Shown piece after piece: positions 517 to 11,668 of a stretch of DNA of 16,462 bases; positions within the stretch are counted from its first letter, which is position 1, and each line of letters opens with the position of its first letter. Position numbers and translations under genes: made by a program. This DNA is from Elusimicrobiales bacterium (GTDB lineage Bacteria; Elusimicrobiota; Elusimicrobia; Elusimicrobiales; UBA9959), in NCBI GenBank assembly GCA_049972095.1, contig JBMFKQ010000034.1:1-16462 (forward strand). Reading direction: 5' to 3'. The notes beneath the pieces were generated by a model. That model had not been told where the DNA came from, searched no databases, and saw only the letters and a list, made by a program, of their open reading frames with translations.

Positions 517-1950
517 CTATCCTTTTATAACACACAGAGGTTTTAATCTTGCAACCTTCTTTGATATAAGAGCTCTATCAACCACATCAACAACCCTGCT
601 TACATCCTTGTAAGCATCAGGGATTTCTTCTGCAAGGGTTGCTTTTGAATTTGCCATAACACTTATCCCTTTTTCTTCAAGCTCTTTTCTTATATCCCTT
701 CCCTTAGAGCTCTCTATAGCCTTTGTCCTTGAAAGAAGTCTTCCAGCCCCATGACAGCTTGAGGCAAAGCTCTTTTCAACTGCTGTTTCAAGCCCTACTA
801 AAACATATGAATATCTGCCCATATCGCCTGGTATTATTACAGGCTGGCCAAACTCTCTATAATCATCTGGTATATCCAAGCTTCCACCAGCAAACGCACG
901 GGTTGCCCCCTTTCTATGAACCACAACCCTTCTTATTACACCACCAACAGGATGTTCTTCTATTTTAGCTATATTGTGAGCAACATCATATACTGTGCGA
1001 AGTGAAAGTGATGACTTTGAAATTGACAATGCAGATAAAAGTGCTTTCTCTGTAAGATGCTTTAAAATCTGTCTGTTTGCCCATGCGAAATTTGCAGCAG
1101 AACACATAGCATCAAAATATCTCTGCCCCTCATCAGATCTAAAAGGAGCACATGCAAGCTCTCTGTCATAAAGTTTTATCCCATATTTTTCACTTGCCTT
1201 AAGCATAATGGAGGTGTATTCTGTTGCTATCTGATGTCCAAACCCCCTTGAACCTGTATGTATCATAACACACACCATACCCTTTTCAAGCCCAAAACCA
1301 TAAGCAACCTTTTCATCATAGAGCTCATCAACAAATGAAACCTCAACAAAATGATTTCCACTTCCAAGAGTGCCAAGCTGATTTTCACCCCTTTCTTTTG
1401 CTTTTCTGCTAACACCATATCCTTCACACAAAACACTTCCTTTTGACTCAATAAATTTAAGATCCTCTTCAGTTCCAAAGCCATTTTCACAAGACCATCT
1501 TGCACCCTTTTTTATAACCTGTCTCCAATCAGAATCCGAAAGTTTTATATAACCCTCGCTACCAACACCAAGTGGTATATTTCTGTAAAGATGAGATGTT
1601 ATGTCTTTTTTTTTCTTTTCAATATCTGAAATTCTAAGCGATGTAGCAAGAAGTCTTACACCACAGTTTATATCATATCCTATTCCCCCAGGTGATATTA
1701 TGCCGTTGTCAATATCAAATGCTGCAACGCCACCTATTGGAAAACCATAACCTTTATGTATATCAGGCATTACAATAACCCTACCAGCCACACCAGGCAG
1801 TGTCGCAACATTTAAAGCTTGGATAAGCGCTTGGTTTTCAATACCTTTCTCTATCTCCTCATCCGCATATATAACAACATCTGTTTTCATACCATTTTTA
1901 TGATCTTTGTCTATTAAAATTGTAAACGGGTCAACCCTTCTAATAGCCAT
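517..1950 (-). CDS. rtcB: RtcB-family RNA 3'-phosphate/5'-OH ligase (long, archease-associated type)
   Basis: Motifs PDIHKGYGFPIGG, GYDINCGVR, GTLGSGNHFVE, IHTGSRG, YDVAHN, HRKGAT, PGDMG and HGAGR (the guanylylated His). SD GGGAGGA just upstream (plus strand tcctccc, 1953-1959). Confidence 0.97.
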   Translation of the reverse strand: MAIRRVDPFTILIDKDHKNGMKTDVVIYADEEIEKGIENQALIQALNVATLPGVAGRVIVMPDIHKGYGFPIGGVAAFDIDNGIISPGGIGYDINCGVRLLATSLRISDIEKKKKDITSHLYRNIPLGVGSEGYIKLSDSDWRQVIKKGARWSCENGFGTEEDLKFIESKGSVLCEGYGVSRKAKERGENQLGTLGSGNHFVEVSFVDELYDEKVAYGFGLEKGMVCVMIHTGSRGFGHQIATEYTSIMLKASEKYGIKLYDRELACAPFRSDEGQRYFDAMCSAANFAWANRQILKHLTEKALLSALSISKSSLSLRTVYDVAHNIAKIEEHPVGGVIRRVVVHRKGATRAFAGGSLDIPDDYREFGQPVIIPGDMGRYSYVLVGLETAVEKSFASSCHGAGRLLSRTKAIESSKGRDIRKELEEKGISVMANSKATLAEEIPDAYKDVSRVVDVVDRALISKKVARLKPLCVIKG

Positions 1951-1961
1951 AGTCCTCCCAA

Positions 1962-2366
1962 TTATACATCTATTATCATCTCAAGATGTATCCTTTTATC
2001 CTCCTTTTTCATAACAAGATTATGAAAGGTTGCAGCTTTAAGTAATCTAATAACATATTCTTTTTTAATAATAAAACCATCAAGTAATGCATCAACTCTA
2101 TTATTATATACATCAAACCTTCCACTAACAGGCATAAAAGCATAAACATCAAAAAGGTATATAAGCTCATTCATATAATCAACCACAAGCAACTCTTCAC
2201 TTTGTGATTCAAGAAAAATCTTTTTTTTCTCAGATGCCTCATTAGAATAATCTCCTGCAATTATCTTTCTGAACGACAGCGTAAGAAGATGAAAGATCTC
2301 TTTCATATCCAAGGCATCTATATGAATCTCAATATCGTTGTTTAAAAAATACTTAATACTTCCCAT
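1962..2366 (-). CDS. Archease (RtcB activator)
   Basis: 134 aa with E-L-x-x-x-x-x-NELIYLFD, LKAATFH (cf. IKAVTYH) and terminal IIDV. Lies 11 bp upstream of rtcB. Confidence 0.88.
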   Translation of the reverse strand: MGSIKYFLNNDIEIHIDALDMKEIFHLLTLSFRKIIAGDYSNEASEKKKIFLESQSEELLVVDYMNELIYLFDVYAFMPVSGRFDVYNNRVDALLDGFIIKKEYVIRLLKAATFHNLVMKKEDKRIHLEMIIDV

Positions 2367-3809: not shown

Positions 3810-3837
3810 ATTATATAAAATTTTAACTGTTTTTCAA
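3810..3837 (-). promoter_or_regulatory. Putative sigma70 promoter for the DUF4139-archease-rtcB unit
   Basis: Minus strand TTGAAA (3832-3837), 16-nt spacer, TATAAT (3810-3815). Overlaps the last codons of the FtsH-like gene. Confidence 0.55.
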
Positions 3838-5451
3838 GTTTACAAGAGGTTTTTTACCATGTTTTTTAAAAACCTCAACAATCTCATCATACTCAAGCTC
3901 ATCTTTTTGAAGAAGAAGACTAACAAACTCCTCAACTATATGCCAGTTCTCTCTTAAGATTTTCTCAGCATTCTTCTTTTCATTATCTATTATCCTATGC
4001 ATCTCTTCATTTAGTTTTGTTACAAACTGCTGGGATATATGTTCTTGAGGAATCTTTGAAAAATCTGCAACGAAACCATCACTTCCCATTCCAAAACGCC
4101 ACACCATCGCATGAACTATCTTTGTAACCTCGCTAAGATCTACACTTACACCATCGCTTGTTGTGGAATATCTTATCATCTCACTAGCATAGCCTCCGAG
4201 TGAAACCCTTATCCCTGCAAGGAGTGTTTCTTTATCCTGAAGATAAAACTCATCCCTTGGCATTGAATGCACAACCCCAAGAACTCCACCACGATTGAGT
4301 ATTGAAACCTTAAAAACATCACGCGTTGGATGTGTAAGGTAAAGAATAACAAGATGCCCTACCTCATGATAAGCAGTCATCTCCCTTTCTTTCTCCGTCA
4401 TAACAACCCTATGTGCAAAACCAAGCTCTATTCTTTCAATCGCGCTTGTTATATCAGAATAATCAATAACATATTTATTCCTCCTTGCTGCAATTAACGC
4501 TGCTTCTTTAACTATATTTTCTATCTCAGCTGGAGTCTTATAAACCGTTTTTCTCGCAAGCCTTGAGATATCAATAGAGTGATCATACTTTACCTTGCTT
4601 AGATAGTATTCAAACAGTTTTTCTCTTTCATAAAGATTTGGTTTTCCTATGAAAATTTTTCTATCAAACCTCCCCGGTCTTAATAAAGCCTCATCAAGTA
4701 TCTCCTCAAGCGCATTTGTTGCCCCAAAAACTACCACATTTGCATCATCATCACTAAGCCCATCCATCTCAACAAGAAGCTGGTTCTGTGTTGAGTTCGT
4801 CTCCGCCCCACCACCAAATGCATCGTATAGTATTCTTCTTCTTCCTATAACCTCAAGCTCATCTATAAAAACTATACAAGCCCCATATATCTGCGCAAGA
4901 TATCTTGCCTCAGAAAAAAGCTTTCTAACCCTTGAAGCACCAACCCCAACGAAAACCTCCACAAACTCAGAGCCAGCAACAGAAATGAAAGGAACATCAG
5001 CCTCAGTTGCTATCGCCTTTGCAAGCAGTGTCTTCCCGCATCCAGGAGGGCCTATAAGAAGAACACCTTTTATTATCTTTCCACCTATACTTTTTAGTCT
5101 CTTTCTGTCTTTTATAAGCTGAACAACCTCCCAGGCCTCTCTTTTTGCCTGTTCAAGCCCTATTATATCTGAAAACCTCACATTTACTTTTTGAGATTTT
5201 ATCCTTGCTTTTTTGAATCTTGAAAAACCACCACCATAGTTAAGAAAATATAGAAGACCAACAAAAATAAGTGTCTGTATAACCATCCAAGGCATTGAAG
5301 CAACATTAACCCCAACTATATACCTTCTTGTATTTGGCTCAAGATTTGAAAGATAAATCACAGGAAAAACAAAGGATAGAAAGGCAAGGACAATAACAGT
5401 TATAAGTAGCCAGTTCTTTTTCAAAAAGAGCTTGATCTTAAACCACAACAT
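3823..5451 (-). CDS. FtsH-like membrane AAA+ ATPase / M41 zinc metalloprotease (divergent paralog with a short inter-TM loop)
   Basis: Two N-terminal hydrophobic helices, Walker A GPPGCGKT, pore loop FVG, Walker B IVFIDE, NQLLVEMDG, SRH ALLRPGRFDR and zinc motif AYHEVGH. Probable third zinc ligand in GVSVDL. Confidence 0.92.
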   Translation of the reverse strand: MLWFKIKLFLKKNWLLITVIVLAFLSFVFPVIYLSNLEPNTRRYIVGVNVASMPWMVIQTLIFVGLLYFLNYGGGFSRFKKARIKSQKVNVRFSDIIGLEQAKREAWEVVQLIKDRKRLKSIGGKIIKGVLLIGPPGCGKTLLAKAIATEADVPFISVAGSEFVEVFVGVGASRVRKLFSEARYLAQIYGACIVFIDELEVIGRRRILYDAFGGGAETNSTQNQLLVEMDGLSDDDANVVVFGATNALEEILDEALLRPGRFDRKIFIGKPNLYEREKLFEYYLSKVKYDHSIDISRLARKTVYKTPAEIENIVKEAALIAARRNKYVIDYSDITSAIERIELGFAHRVVMTEKEREMTAYHEVGHLVILYLTHPTRDVFKVSILNRGGVLGVVHSMPRDEFYLQDKETLLAGIRVSLGGYASEMIRYSTTSDGVSVDLSEVTKIVHAMVWRFGMGSDGFVADFSKIPQEHISQQFVTKLNEEMHRIIDNEKKNAEKILRENWHIVEEFVSLLLQKDELEYDEIVEVFKKHGKKPLVNLKNS

Positions 5452-5455
5452 ATTA

Positions 5456-6013
5456 TCACTGTTGAAGACCCGGAAGAATAAATGCTATGGGCCTGTCTCT
5501 GTTTGGAACATACTTAATAACCTCAAGCGCCTTCCCCGTTGTGCATATATAATCATAGCCTGCATAGCAGTAATTATTTTGAAACCTATCTACACAAACA
5601 GCCTGCTTGGGATATTTACATAAAAGCTTTATACCGGCTGGATTTGTATAAACCCTTATAGTCACAACATTCCAAACCATAGTCCTTACAATCTCAAGCT
5701 CAAGCCCATTATCTTTAAGATTCAAAAACCTTTTGATCGGGGTTGAATTAAAACCAATATAATCTGCAACCTTCTCCTTTATATCCTTTTTGAGCCAGGA
5801 CTCATCCCATGATTGAGCATATTTAACATTGAGATGTGATTCAAGCTGCCATCTTCTTGCAGCATAATATGCTGCTATCTCCATCTTTTGAACAAGAACA
5901 AGAAGTGCAAATATCTTTGCTATAAAAAACATCACTATCATAAAAACTGGGAAAAGCAAAACAACCTCTGTCATTGCCTGAGAGATTCTCTTCTTGCAAA
6001 AAAAATCTTTCAT
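5456..6013 (-). CDS. TadE-like pseudopilin (class III signal peptide)
   Basis: KKRIS|QAMTEVVLLFP: basic leader, Gln+1, Glu+5, a hydrophobic helix, then AAYYAARR (cf. TadE AAREGAR). Four Cys in the C-terminal region. Confidence 0.8.
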   Translation of the reverse strand: MKDFFCKKRISQAMTEVVLLFPVFMIVMFFIAKIFALLVLVQKMEIAAYYAARRWQLESHLNVKYAQSWDESWLKKDIKEKVADYIGFNSTPIKRFLNLKDNGLELEIVRTMVWNVVTIRVYTNPAGIKLLCKYPKQAVCVDRFQNNYCYAGYDYICTTGKALEVIKYVPNRDRPIAFILPGLQQ

Positions 6014-6029
6014 AAACCTTCCTCAAAAA

Positions 6030-7154
6030 CTATGGGTAAAGCCTTGTCTGATACTTTGGTGTAGGATTTGGCCAGACACAGTTATTCATACTATAAAGAT
6101 CAGGACATTGAGTTGTTATCTTTGCATGAACACACGGATGTCTCTCATCAGCACACTCCTTCCAGCTCTTTGCATCAAAATTAATATTGAAATAATTATT
6201 TCCAACATCAACAGGATGATAAAGTTCATAACCAAGCCCACTCTGTCTTAAAAGAGATGGCTCTACAGTGGTTAGCTGGAAAAGACCTGGCTCAGGAAAC
6301 TCAACAGGTGGCTCAGTTCTTGCAATCTCATAGGGTGGAAGCCCTCCTAAACGATACTTTGCCCACCACTTCATCCTCTTTACATAATGCAGTTTAACAT
6401 CGCTGTCCCTTTGCCACTTTCTTAAGCCCGAACCACTAAGAGCCTCATCTCCACATGTCTCAGGATAATCCTGACATTTTTTTGTAGCAGCATTGAGATA
6501 AAAAGATTTTCTAAAAAAACTCATCTTCTCAGTCAGCCTCTGAAAAACAGCAAACTGTGCTTCCTCCACTGTTCCAAGTGTCAAATAAACCTGAGCATAG
6601 AATTTATAATAGTTTAACGAAGGATCCCAGAATATATATATTCTTTGAGCCTGCTTTGGATTTATAAAAATTAGTTCATCGGGAAAACTTGGATTTGATG
6701 TGTTAAGATTCTGAGGTCTTGGATTTTCAACAAGCTCTGTAGGTTGTTGATTATATTCTATCTCCCACTTACCAGCATTATCAAAATGGGAGGATGGAGG
6801 AGGCTGCCCTATAACATCATCTTTCCAACTAGGAAAAACTCCTTGTTCCCAAAACATTGTATAAGGGCATACCATTCCTCTATCATCTGTTCTTTGAAGG
6901 AAGTCTTGAGAAGTTCTACAGTCCCACTCCTCTTTAAATATTCTGTAAGGAAAGGCTCCGTTAACATAGGCAGTTCTATTTAAAAAATTTGTATAGTCCT
7001 GCATCTGAACAAAGGCTGCTGAATCAAGAGCAAATTGAGTTCTTATTTTTTCCCTTGATATCTTTGTTGTTTCATAAAGAAGATAGATGAATATTATCAG
7101 AGATGGTATAACAAGAACAGAGGGAAGTAAAAGCTGTGCTTTTCTTCTATTCAT
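6030..7154 (-). CDS. TadG/Tad-domain-like large pseudopilin (possible tip subunit or adhesin)
   Basis: MNRRKA|QLLLPSVLV hydrophobic helix followed by TQFALDSAAF (cf. the Tad-domain Q-x-A-x-D-x-AA motif). No Glu+5. Eight Cys in the soluble domain. Confidence 0.72.
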   Translation of the reverse strand: MNRRKAQLLLPSVLVIPSLIIFIYLLYETTKISREKIRTQFALDSAAFVQMQDYTNFLNRTAYVNGAFPYRIFKEEWDCRTSQDFLQRTDDRGMVCPYTMFWEQGVFPSWKDDVIGQPPPSSHFDNAGKWEIEYNQQPTELVENPRPQNLNTSNPSFPDELIFINPKQAQRIYIFWDPSLNYYKFYAQVYLTLGTVEEAQFAVFQRLTEKMSFFRKSFYLNAATKKCQDYPETCGDEALSGSGLRKWQRDSDVKLHYVKRMKWWAKYRLGGLPPYEIARTEPPVEFPEPGLFQLTTVEPSLLRQSGLGYELYHPVDVGNNYFNINFDAKSWKECADERHPCVHAKITTQCPDLYSMNNCVWPNPTPKYQTRLYP

Positions 7155-7159
7155 AATTG

Positions 7160-7330
7160 CTACTTTGGAGTTCCTGCCCCAAGAATAAGCCCAACTATAG
7201 TAAAAAAAACACCTATGATCTTTTTGTAAAAAAGAACAAAAAATATAAGCGCACCACCCGCTATTGTTGCAAGCAAAAGGAGATATTCAACAGTGGTTTG
7301 AGCTTTTTTAAACTGAGTAAATCCCTTCAT
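7160..7330 (-). CDS. Flp-like / class III prepilin, 56 aa (MKGFTQFKKA|QTTVEYLLLLATIAGGALIFFVLFYKKIIGVFFTIVGLILGAGTPK)
   Basis: Translated by hand from ATG at 7330 to TAG at 7160-7162. Basic leader, Gln+1, Glu+5-Tyr+6 (the Flp EY motif) and a hydrophobic helix. Ends 5 bp before the Tad-like gene. Absent from the ORF track. Confidence 0.88.
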   Translation of the reverse strand: MKGFTQFKKAQTTVEYLLLLATIAGGALIFFVLFYKKIIGVFFTIVGLILGAGTPK

Positions 7331-7336
7331 AATTAT

Positions 7337-7365
7337 TTTATAGCACTAATTTTATGATTTTTCAA
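7337..7365 (-). promoter_or_regulatory. Putative sigma70 promoter of the pilin operon, probably leaderless
   Basis: TTGAAA (7360-7365), 17-nt spacer ending TGC, TATAAA (7337-7342), then 6 nt and the ATG. No SD sequence. Confidence 0.6.
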
Positions 7366-7383: not shown

Positions 7384-8034
7384 TTAAGGGGATATAGGGG
7401 ATATAAGTCCTTTTTCGATAGCCTTGACCACAGCCTCTGTTCTGTTCGTAACCCCAAGTTTATTGAATATGCTGTTGAGATGATTTTTTACGGTTTTTAC
7501 ACTGCATTTTAGCTCATGAGCTATTTCTTTGTTTGATTTTCCCCTTCCAAGAAGGACCATAACCTTCATCTCTGTAGGTGTAAGGGCTTCCGGAGAGTCT
7601 TTTATACCCTGTCTTAGTCCACTTATAAGCTTATTCATTATCGGTTGAGGGATCATAATAGACTCGCTTGTAAACGCTTTTAATGCATTTACAAGTTCAT
7701 TTGCTGGAAGCATTTTTGAAAGATATCCATTTGCACCTGCCTGAATTGCTTCTGTTATATGAGCCTCATCTTCATAGCTTGAAAGTATTATAACATTTGT
7801 CTGAGAGAATTTTTCTCTTATGATCTTTGTTGCAGTTATACCATCCATCTCAGGTATTTTTATATCCATAAGAACAACATCGGGTTTAAGCCTTTTAACC
7901 ATCTCTATAACCTCAGGACCTGTTTTTGCCTCACCTACTACCTTTATACCCTTCTCATCCTCAAGAAGATCTTTTAGTCCCTCTCTGAAAAGCGTCTGAT
8001 CATCAGCTATTAAAACTGTTACAATCTTTGCCAT
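7384..8034 (-). CDS. NarL/FixJ-family response regulator (REC + LuxR HTH)
   Basis: IADDQTLFREGL, phosphoacceptor VLMD, GANGYLSK, and HTH LTPTE...GKSNKEIAHEL...TVKNHLNSIFNKLGV. SD GGAGG at 8039-8043. Confidence 0.95.
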   Translation of the reverse strand: MAKIVTVLIADDQTLFREGLKDLLEDEKGIKVVGEAKTGPEVIEMVKRLKPDVVLMDIKIPEMDGITATKIIREKFSQTNVIILSSYEDEAHITEAIQAGANGYLSKMLPANELVNALKAFTSESIMIPQPIMNKLISGLRQGIKDSPEALTPTEMKVMVLLGRGKSNKEIAHELKCSVKTVKNHLNSIFNKLGVTNRTEAVVKAIEKGLISPISP

Positions 8035-8057: not shown

Positions 8058-9209
8058 TTAAGTGCGGTTTTCATTCCCCTCTTCTTTTGCAAAAGGAATA
8101 GTGAAGCTAAATGTTGAGCCCTTTCCAATCCCTTCAGATTCAACCCATATCTTACCGTTATGTGCCTGAACTATCTCTTTTGATATGGAAAGTCCAAGCC
8201 CGAGTCTTCCATGACCTGCCTTTGAACCGGGTGGCTGATAAAAACTTTGAAAGAGATTTTTTAAAACATCCGAGGGTATCCCTTCTCCACTATCTATAAC
8301 ACTTACGCATACACTATCCTCATCATTGCTTTTTTTAACCCTTAATGTTATTTTACCGCCACGAGGTGTATGTCTTATAGCGTTTTCTAAAAGGTTTAAA
8401 ATCACCTGACTTATTCTTCTCTTATCTCCAAGAACCATTCTTAAGCCCTCTTTATCTATCTCACTACAAATCTCAATATTTTTCTGCAAAGCCCTTGTCC
8501 TAAGACCCACTATAAGTTCATCAACAAGTTTATCCATCTCAAAATAGTTCTTCTCAAGTCTAAACTTTCCTTGTTCTATAGACGCCCAATCAACAAGATC
8601 TCCTACCAATCTTGATATCTGTTGTATTGAGGTGTTTATAAAATTCATCTTTTTCTTCTGATCATCAGTTGTATTCTTTATTGATGCTGCAAGCATCTCA
8701 AAGCTTATTTGAAGTGTCATCAAGGCATTTGAAAGATCATGGCTTGCCATAGAGAGAAACTTTGATTTCATATTATTAAGTCTATCAAGCTCTTTATTTT
8801 GTTCTTTAAGAACATTTAAAAGCCTCTCATTCTCCTGCTCAAGCCTCAGTTTATCCTCCGCCCTTCTTATGGCATTCTTTAAGTAATTAAAATCAACAGG
8901 TTTTATGAGAAAATCATAAACTGATTCCTGAATTGCCTTTACTGCTGTATCAAGAGATGCATGAGCTGTCATCATAAGTATCTGACTGTCTTTATTAAGC
9001 TTTCTTATATCCTTTATAACCTCTATACCTGTTTTGTCTGTGAGATTAAAGTCCATCAGTATTATGTGAAAGAAATCCGAAGCAACCATACTCATTGCCT
9101 CAGCACCACTGGCTGCCTCAAAAACCTCATAGCCTTCCATCTCAAGCAAATCCTTAAGCGTCTCTCTCAAATGAGCATCGTCATCAACTATAAGTAGTTT
9201 TGATGGCAT
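8058..9209 (-). CDS. Cytoplasmic hybrid histidine kinase (REC-coiled coil-HisKA-HATPase_c)
   Basis: REC motifs IVDDD, ILMD, MMTAH and LIKP. H-box ASHDLSNAL, N-box NLLENAIRH, G1 DSGEGI, G2 LGLGL and GKGSTF. No TM segment. Confidence 0.93.
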   Translation of the reverse strand: MPSKLLIVDDDAHLRETLKDLLEMEGYEVFEAASGAEAMSMVASDFFHIILMDFNLTDKTGIEVIKDIRKLNKDSQILMMTAHASLDTAVKAIQESVYDFLIKPVDFNYLKNAIRRAEDKLRLEQENERLLNVLKEQNKELDRLNNMKSKFLSMASHDLSNALMTLQISFEMLAASIKNTTDDQKKKMNFINTSIQQISRLVGDLVDWASIEQGKFRLEKNYFEMDKLVDELIVGLRTRALQKNIEICSEIDKEGLRMVLGDKRRISQVILNLLENAIRHTPRGGKITLRVKKSNDEDSVCVSVIDSGEGIPSDVLKNLFQSFYQPPGSKAGHGRLGLGLSISKEIVQAHNGKIWVESEGIGKGSTFSFTIPFAKEEGNENRT

Positions 9210-10543: not shown

Positions 10544-11668
10544 TTATGTCTTTGATATAATAGCAAGAAGTGCATCAACTGATCTTTTAATCTGCTTGAA
10601 TATCATCTCATAAAAAACATAATCCTTACCATAAGGATCATATATATCCCCTCCATAACCTGTATACTCATTTAGAGTAAAAACCTTTTTTGAATGCTCA
10701 GGAAAAAGAAGAAGAAGTTTATTTTTATGTTCCTTTGTCATTACAAGGATAATATCATTTAATTCTATAAAAGCTCTGTCTATTTGTTTTGGGGTGTGAA
10801 TGAAATTTTTTATCCCTTCATTTGAGATAAGCCTTAAAACATTCTCACCTACATTAGCATTCTCTTGAACCCAAAGCCCAGCTGAATCAAAAATAATATC
10901 CAATTTCCTTTCACTTGTTAGTTTCACTGCATAGGCAAAAGCCAATACACTTCTGCAGGTGTTTGAGCTAGATACAAATCCAACCCTTGATATTTTCTTC
11001 AAGATTTTATCAGGCTTTGAAAATATAACAGTTATCTCACCTTTTATCTCTTTCTTCTGCAAAAGAGCAGATAAAACATTGCTTACACTTCCCTTTATCC
11101 ACTCTTCATGAAGTTTTGTTAATTCTCTTGCCACAACACAGTCTATATCTCCAAAGTTTTCAAGAACAAGTTCAAGAAGTCTAATAACTCTATTTGGCGA
11201 TTCATATACAATAACCGGAAAATCATAGAGAATCGCTGAAAGCATCTTAATCATTCGAGATTTGGCTCTTGGTAGAAAGCCTAAAAAGACAAACCTGCTT
11301 CCATCAAAACCACTTCCTGCAATCCCAGCTATACAAGCAGAGTTAACACCAATAACTCTAACATCAATTCCTTTCTCTCTTGCAAGCTTTACAATTCTCC
11401 AACCAGGATCAGATATACAAGGAGTTCCTGCATCCGAAATAAGACATAGATTCATACCTGATGCCATCATCTGAACTATTTCATCAACTGATTCTTTTGA
11501 GGTTTCATTATATCTTAGAATCTTCTTACTTATCCCATAGTAAGAAAGAAGCTTCAAACTAACCCTTGTATCCTCACATATAACAGCATCACAATTCTTA
11601 ATAATGTCTAAGGCTCTTTGAGTTATATCACTAAGATTTCCTATTGGAGTTGAAACAACAAAAAGCAC
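10544..11668 (-). CDS. rsmI: 16S rRNA C1402 2'-O-methyltransferase RsmI fused to a C-terminal LMW-PTP-like domain (catalytic Cys replaced by Ser)
   Basis: STPIGNLSDIT, CEDTR, SDAGTPCISDPG, FLGFLP, YESPNR, ARELTKLHEE and KGEI, followed by FVSSSNTCRS, DSAG, DIILVM and DIYDPYG. GTG start. Confidence 0.92.
   Translation of the reverse strand: MLFVVSTPIGNLSDITQRALDIIKNCDAVICEDTRVSLKLLSYYGISKKILRYNETSKESVDEIVQMMASGMNLCLISDAGTPCISDPGWRIVKLAREKGIDVRVIGVNSACIAGIAGSGFDGSRFVFLGFLPRAKSRMIKMLSAILYDFPVIVYESPNRVIRLLELVLENFGDIDCVVARELTKLHEEWIKGSVSNVLSALLQKKEIKGEITVIFSKPDKILKKISRVGFVSSSNTCRSVLAFAYAVKLTSERKLDIIFDSAGLWVQENANVGENVLRLISNEGIKNFIHTPKQIDRAFIELNDIILVMTKEHKNKLLLLFPEHSKKVFTLNEYTGYGGDIYDPYGKDYVFYEMIFKQIKRSVDALLAIISKT

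Follow-up and report, generated by a model that had tools for sequence, protein, structure and literature searches.

The 16,462-nucleotide stretch analysed here (the window) is the entire contig C34 (JBMFKQ010000034.1) of the 1.44-Mb, 96.5% complete genome of an uncultured Elusimicrobiales bacterium. On its minus strand a Flp-like gene, a tadG-like gene, a tadE-like gene and a gene for a second FtsH protease, here called ftsH2, follow one another with gaps of 5, 16 and 4 bp, exactly as the first-pass annotation had laid them out. The best explanation for this layout is that flp and the tadG-like and tadE-like genes form a minor-pilin operon with its own promoter, belonging to an ordinary Elusimicrobia Tad pilus, and that ftsH2 is the last gene of this operon. 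FtsH2 itself is an old paralog common to the Elusimicrobiota and to Omnitrophota-labelled relatives, in which it is normally encoded just before a lipoprotein gene; at the pilin locus it is a conserved but optional and dispensable operon tail, and the locus is not a new pilus system. With a probability of roughly 0.45, we suggest that FtsH2 serves as an accessory ATP-dependent membrane protease, co-expressed with the Tad genes and degrading membrane or regulatory proteins of the Tad programme; the link to the pilus is circumstantial.

Judged by its sequence, FtsH2 is a true FtsH paralog and apparently an intact ATP-dependent membrane protease. The AAA (PF00004, E=9e-38) and Peptidase_M41 (PF01434, E=1e-37) domains are accompanied by two closely spaced N-terminal transmembrane segments (hydropathy peaks at 6-38 and, weaker, 45-64). 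Among the 44 tadE-linked copies, 41 are untruncated; all 41 of these retain HExGH and the arginine finger of the second region of homology (SRH), and 40 each the Walker A motif and the pore-loop pattern, with an Asp downstream of HExxH, presumably the third zinc ligand, invariant in alignment A3. FtsH2 thus shares with the FtsH family (TIGR01241; PF00004 plus PF01434) the N-terminal membrane anchor, Walker A/B, FVG pore loop, SRH arginine finger and HExxH, but differs in having no match to the periplasmic domain FtsH_ext (PF06480), in scoring only 465.6 bits on TIGR01241 against a cut-off of 600, in forming a separate clade, and in having a lipoprotein neighbour in most of that clade. The housekeeping FtsH, which carries FtsH_ext and is 36% identical to FtsH2, was found on contig C18, and FtsH2 falls outside the housekeeping group in the tree described below; the early proposal of a paralog distinct from canonical FtsH is thereby upheld, and the possibility that FtsH2 is the only FtsH of the genome was rejected. 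One copy elsewhere (G226:C37:53832-55439) contains a single in-frame TGA, which could reflect loss in progress or an assembly error. Tandem fusions with at least two FtsH2-like AAA+M41 units per chain also occur (P0142, P0143 and P0241-P0248, up to 1367 aa, some labelled Omnitrophota), P0142 and P0143 retaining both HExGH sites, and a search of 50% representatives returned mostly proteins with tandem domains; of 10 clusters checked, 2 had names.

TadA, TadB/C, a secretin and a prepilin peptidase were not found in the window, and all their matches in the genome lie on other contigs. The first-pass annotation had read this as a candidate new system without Tad machinery, its assembly machinery being encoded elsewhere. 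The absence is true of the window and false of the genome: a complete Tad machine on contig C24 bears out the second part of that proposal and leaves the idea of a new system unsupported. C24 carries two flp genes, tadE, cpaB, a short secretin gene, a tadZ-tadA fusion, tadB, tadC and a TPR-type tadD, the names tadZ and tadD being assigned from sequence and gene order. Among the proteins encoded at G000:C24:9791-18131, the TadZ-TadA-like fusion measures 732 aa, TadB 512 aa, including a long N-terminal extension, and the secretin 238 aa. The genome thus holds the flp, tadE/G-like, cpaB, secretin, tadA, tadB, tadC and tadD genes of known Tad/Flp (type IVc) loci, from which it differs in three respects: the genes are scattered over contigs, with the Tad and signalling island spread over C24, C4, C20, C34 and C10; an FtsH paralog sits in a pilin operon; and, where a dedicated TadV prepilin peptidase would be expected, the only A24 peptidase (PF01478) found in the 96.5% complete genome lies on C22, beside type IV pilus genes. 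In some relatives (L070, L074-L080) the kinase, regulator and pilin genes form the tail of a full tad locus. Denise et al. (2019) had already described Elusimicrobia with Tad systems and call scattered loci very rare (PMC6668835).

The prepilin labels of the window genes are plausible but weak. The Flp-like protein matches Class_IIIsignal (E=0.005) and the TadE-like protein matches TadE (PF07811, E=0.013), both under the gathering cut-off; these two of the three pilin-like proteins have Glu+5, joined by Tyr+6 in the former, and among 80 related loci their homologs recur in 77 and 80, respectively. The 374-aa TadG-like protein has neither a Pfam match of its own nor Glu+5, and 12 of 26 homologs give weak matches to Tad (PF13400, best E 0.017). 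It has one N-terminal transmembrane segment, a long helix and conserved cysteines, and its named homologs are from Elusimicrobiota; its structure was predicted with a predicted local distance difference test (pLDDT) score of 79.6, and a Foldseek search with the fold gave no match. We consider it a plausible, if weakly indicated, TadG-like minor pilin or tip protein.

A promoter-like element upstream of flp had been pointed out at the outset and is indeed present, its pattern recurring at 49 of 72 junctions between response regulator and flp genes in relatives, as opposed to 1/77, 0/80, 1/44 and 0/69 at four kinds of control junction, although this count is partly circular because the pattern was derived from those same junctions. 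Genome-wide it matches 161 times in 1.44 Mb. It replaced an earlier, stricter pattern that matched 19/72 of the regulator-flp junctions, yet also 6/44 control junctions; a generic promoter scan performed at chance level (52 sites vs 60 in shuffles), with the flp promoter not among its sites. Since the -10 hexamer ends only 6 nt before the flp ATG, a leaderless flp transcript is predicted. The ftsH2 gene has no Shine-Dalgarno sequence and starts 4 bp past the tadE stop. A second promoter-like element had been taken to bound the unit at its other end. The site exists, and its role as an operon boundary was rejected: it overlaps the ftsH2 stop and faces a DUF4139 gene, and promoters do not terminate transcription. 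The sequence scan listed no terminator-like site near it, and the DUF4139 gene follows ftsH2 in only 1 of the 80 related loci, which places the site outside the conserved unit.

The linkage of ftsH2 to the pilin genes, in turn, is conserved in relatives, as had been anticipated. None of the three findings named at the outset as contradicting the proposal (a sole or housekeeping-type FtsH, a pilin linkage not shared by relatives, a transcript boundary between 5451 and 5456) emerged. We searched 251 genomes of the phylum, of which 106, including this one, have a tadG-like gene and 117 have FtsH2 at a threshold of E<=1e-110; the families with the tadG-like gene (f1, f2, f5, f6, f7, f8 and f11) are referred to as the crown. 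Among the 80 tadG-like loci, ftsH2 follows tadE in 44 and is absent from the locus in 30, with 6 too short to tell, so that 44 of the 74 informative loci show the linkage. Twenty-five other crown genomes, compared by hand, have FtsH2: in 22 it lies within 2 kb behind the tadG-like match and in one directly behind tadE, giving 23 of 25 across six families; of the remaining two, one is cut by contig ends and one (G056) is unlinked. Three further genomes that were fetched all agree. The gap between tadE and ftsH2 has a median of 18.5 bp and is at most 30 bp in 25 of 42 cases. In five loci (L028, L031, L033, L057, L069) the spacer holds related GC-rich hairpin inserts of 160-220 bp, resembling repetitive extragenic palindrome (REP)-like elements. 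A low-complexity membrane protein and an S41/PDZ lipoprotein (L010:10106-12793, L048:4263-6713) are encoded after ftsH2 (or tadE) in many f1 genomes; in this genome both lie on C10.

For the history of FtsH2 we used a quick IQ-TREE inference on 89 of 117 candidate rows, including every third FtsH2 copy from L003-L082; the tree is unrooted and contains no FtsH from distant phyla. Housekeeping FtsH splits off with a support of 100. The pilin-linked copies fall on one side of a branch of length 0.11 with a Shimodaira-Hasegawa-like approximate likelihood ratio test (SH-aLRT) support of 92, and the families to which they belong also group together in the housekeeping subtree. This is consistent with vertical descent and a single linkage event. 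The second FtsH of Pseudomonas aeruginosa clone C is likewise an extra, dispensable copy beside the housekeeping one; it is, however, a xenolog gained by horizontal transfer and has a periplasmic domain (PMC6629908), whereas FtsH2 tracks the housekeeping tree.

Outside the crown, ftsH2 is followed by a gene for a lipoprotein of 250-300 aa with an invariant Cys and no Pfam family. In the 91 non-crown FtsH2 genomes this gene adjoins ftsH2 in 76, lies elsewhere in 12 and was not found in 3; only 5 of 93 genomes with the lipoprotein have no FtsH2 match, and a search of 107 crown-family genomes yielded no lipoprotein. The same pair occurs in 66 of 79 metagenome loci encoding relatives of an Omnitrophota-labelled protein, on contigs without taxonomy. 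A second signature goes with it: the short periplasmic loop between the two transmembrane segments of FtsH2 (the ES[FY] loop) bears a [ED][SA][FY] motif in 34 of 35 non-crown and 58 of 70 metagenome copies and in 0 of 55 crown copies. G201, the sole non-crown exception, is also without the lipoprotein; of the 12 metagenome exceptions, 11 are at loci without a lipoprotein profile match, several with a divergent lipoprotein-like gene in its place. This co-variation amounts to a handful of events and not dozens. Gene order and loop co-variation together suggest that FtsH2 and the lipoprotein may be physical partners, the lipoprotein being a candidate FtsH regulator.

The model of the lipoprotein (pLDDT 88) had no Foldseek match at E<=0.001, the best VIA Z of 6.8 being among unrelated alpha/beta domains, and an Atlas search retrieved only unnamed Elusimicrobiota and Omnitrophota clusters. 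A complex prediction of the FtsH2 transmembrane region (three copies, G151 lineage) with the lipoprotein scored 0.07 against a mark of 0.32 and is not used as evidence. FtsH is usually steered by HflKC or by adaptors such as LapB. FtsH2 resembles adaptor- or modulator-controlled AAA+ proteases of this kind (FtsH-HflKC, FtsH-LapB and CpdR-ClpXP) in its constant partner gene and, often, a single-domain receiver gene upstream; it differs from them in that the lipoprotein has no Pfam family or clear structural match, and in that binding is deduced from gene order and loop co-variation only. Among Endomicrobia-like genomes, one locus (L162, G053:C22) has the ftsH2-lipoprotein pair divergent from a tad operon, and at L103, L104, L113, L114, L116 and L117 the pair is often flanked by genes for very large proteins (1500-2000 aa). 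In six other genomes compared by hand, with both loci on one contig, the pair and tad lie 70-116 kb apart.

The earlier suggestion that FtsH2 is a pilus-dedicated factor is not supported by a comparison across the phylum, where the clade is widespread and mostly lipoprotein-paired. It is not confined to pilin neighbourhoods, with 91 of the 117 FtsH2 genomes outside the pilin-linked lineage; only its crown subclade keeps to them (23 of 25). Its co-occurrence with Tad fails in both directions. In the Elusimicrobiaceae-like family f2, cpaB and the tadG-like gene are present in 71 of 71 genomes and FtsH2 in 1; with the window protein as query it was not found in the other 70, nor in 10 of 17 f1 genomes. 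Conversely, in f3, f9 and f12 FtsH2 is present in 7 of 7 genomes and cpaB in none. In all, a cpaB match is lacking from 26 of the 91 non-crown genomes with FtsH2, among them incomplete ones as well as the near-complete G122 (3 contigs, 99%) and G168 (9 contigs, 100%). On a TadG+TadE tree of 71 loci (9 of the 80 being left out as short, truncated or with <500 bp downstream), the presence of FtsH2 requires at least six changes, four of them forced by strong branches.

A possible origin of the linkage is indicated by the signalling genes around ftsH2. In the sister family f4, the genomes share the gene order dCache kinase, REC kinase, ftsH2, lipoprotein, NarL regulator (5/5, G255 having a shorter kinase and no dCache kinase), tad machine genes adjoin this island in 4 of 5, and the kinase and regulator that flank the pair have as best matches the kinase and regulator genes next to the window's pilin operon. 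The window kinase is also the best genome match of the kinases beside ftsH2 in f3, f4, f9 and f12, and in f3, f9 and f12 a REC-kinase of the same kind adjoins ftsH2 without any cpaB; the kinases beside ftsH2 in families without a tadG-like gene are likely orthologs of the window kinase. By hand count, 18 of 35 non-crown loci, spread over nine families, have a receiver or kinase gene immediately before ftsH2. Crown genomes have no lipoprotein match and a changed ES[FY] loop, with ftsH2 positioned three genes further downstream, after tadE. In the simplest history, ftsH2 would have resided in the signalling island, the lipoprotein would have been lost in the crown ancestor, and ftsH2 would have come to lie a few genes downstream, under the pilin promoter.

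We suggest that the pilin promoter drives ftsH2, that its translation is coupled to that of tadE and that it is switched on together with the Tad surface programme. Its product would form a hexameric membrane protease, as FtsH proteins do, and degrade regulatory or membrane proteins of the programme, signalling components being the most plausible targets, to give feedback or a reset; it would be a dispensable tuning element, neither motor nor core pilus part. Several observations weigh against this proposal. The signalling link is not universal, because no receiver gene precedes ftsH2 in 17 of the 35 non-crown loci, among them every one of the nine f14 (Endomicrobia-like) loci that were fetched, and the Omnitrophota-like ftsH2 loci are mostly beside unrelated genes. 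The tadE-ftsH2 spacer exceeds 100 bp in 11 of 42 cases, several with strong hairpins. Finally, the pilin linkage is one event, its carriers, as kin, are not independent, and the crown branch has an SH-aLRT of 92 only, from a quick tree.

The strongest competitor, which we regard as rather unlikely, is that FtsH2 is a general second quality-control protease, with substrates unrelated to pili, that came to lie behind tadE through a local rearrangement within the island and, for want of a separate promoter, has remained in that place. The single origin of the linkage, the short stem branch (0.11) with no sign of a burst of change in the catalytic core, the repeated changes on the pilin tree, the retention of FtsH2 without cpaB and the unlinked crown copy would all agree with a passenger. 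Against it stands the persistence of the pair itself, since ftsH2 stayed with tadE while neighbours on either side changed: four loci (L047, L096, L100, L101) have the kinase-regulator pair set apart, L003-L007 have different genes downstream, tadE-ftsH2 is apart from tadG in G128, and in the present genome, with the island over five contigs, the two genes are still together.

It is distinctly improbable, in our estimate, that FtsH2 performs pilin quality control, a role that would be limited to the crown, where after loss of the lipoprotein it would have been co-opted to extract and degrade unassembled or surplus single-pass pilins (Flp, TadE-like, TadG-like) in the inner membrane. The tight and long-lived coupling to tadE is in line with such a role, as is the change of the periplasmic loop in exactly the crown lineage, and a protease without periplasmic cap could more easily admit small membrane substrates. 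PilA1 co-purifies with FtsH4 in Synechocystis, which its authors suggest reflects co-localisation (PMC9860182), and deletion of ftsH1 lowers twitching in P. aeruginosa, the double mutant being more affected (PMC6629908). Yet the same pilin operon occurs without ftsH2 in 30 of 74 loci and throughout nearly all of f2, on C24 the major Tad operon includes flp and tadE genes but none for a protease, and processed pilins would keep almost no cytoplasmic tail that FtsH could grip. That FtsH2 replaces TadA as energy source of a stand-alone pilus, as might be suggested by an ATPase gene closing a pilin operon in a window that lacks TadA, was rejected as contradicted by the TadZ-TadA fusion, TadB, TadC, CpaB and secretin on C24, the retained protease site of FtsH2 and its frequent absence.

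Features of the window and of the lipoprotein loci are collected below. The remaining window neighbours are poorly conserved among the 80 related loci (glyA 4, rsmI 4, DUF4139 1, rtcB 1), and those homologs of window genes that carry names are from Elusimicrobiota. At 517-2366 (minus strand) lies what we take to be an RtcB-like ligase gene beside a 134-aa archease-like gene, a pair found again in 1 of the 80 loci. The minus-strand gene at 10544-11668 encodes an RsmI-like methylase fused to a low-molecular-weight phosphatase domain, of equal length in three close relatives.

Table 1. Positions of the pilin operon, its candidate promoters, the adjoining signalling genes and the lipoprotein gene of relatives.
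Feature	Position	Strand	Description
flp-like gene	7160..7330	-	56 aa
tadG-like gene	6030..7154	-	374 aa
tadE-like gene	5456..6013	-	185 aa
ftsH2	3823..5451	-	542 aa, second FtsH, AAA + M41 zinc protease
sigma-70-type promoter, extended -10	7337..7365	-	TTGAAA 7365-7360, 17-nt spacer, TG-C-TATAAA 7345-7337
promoter-like site	3810..3837	-	11/12 consensus; overlaps ftsH2 stop, points into DUF4139 gene
NarL/LuxR-type response regulator, Tad-linked signalling island	7384..8034	-	Response_reg + GerE; 72/80 related loci
hybrid REC-HisKA-HATPase kinase	8058..9209	-	domain matches; 69/80 related loci
lipoprotein example	L114:5213-5995 and relatives; L165-L243	- (L114)	directly after ftsH2, Elusimicrobiota and Omnitrophota-like contigs

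No title or abstract was found that dealt with an FtsH paralog of Elusimicrobiota or Omnitrophota, with an FtsH encoded within a tad operon or with a pairing of FtsH and lipoprotein, subscription papers and supplements being outside the scope of that search. A wider scenario, which we put forward as unlikely, would join the observations into one history: the FtsH2 subfamily of Elusimicrobiota and Omnitrophota would have swapped its periplasmic domain for a separate lipoprotein regulator that docks on the ES[FY] loop and passes envelope signals to proteolysis, and in one large lineage the lipoprotein would have been dropped, the loop rebuilt and the protease rewired to the Tad pilin operon, with pilins or pilus-linked signalling proteins as new partners or substrates, providing a protease-based reset of a surface-sensing pilus. 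The FtsH2-lipoprotein pair is the more promising lead, and one that this genome no longer carries. The window represents a derived state, in which the lipoprotein neighbour was lost and the protease joined a predicted Tad pilin transcript, a clean, natural exchange of partners accompanied by a matching change of the loop. If true, a two-phylum FtsH subfamily without periplasmic domain and with a constant lipoprotein neighbour would constitute a new candidate mode of regulating membrane proteolysis.

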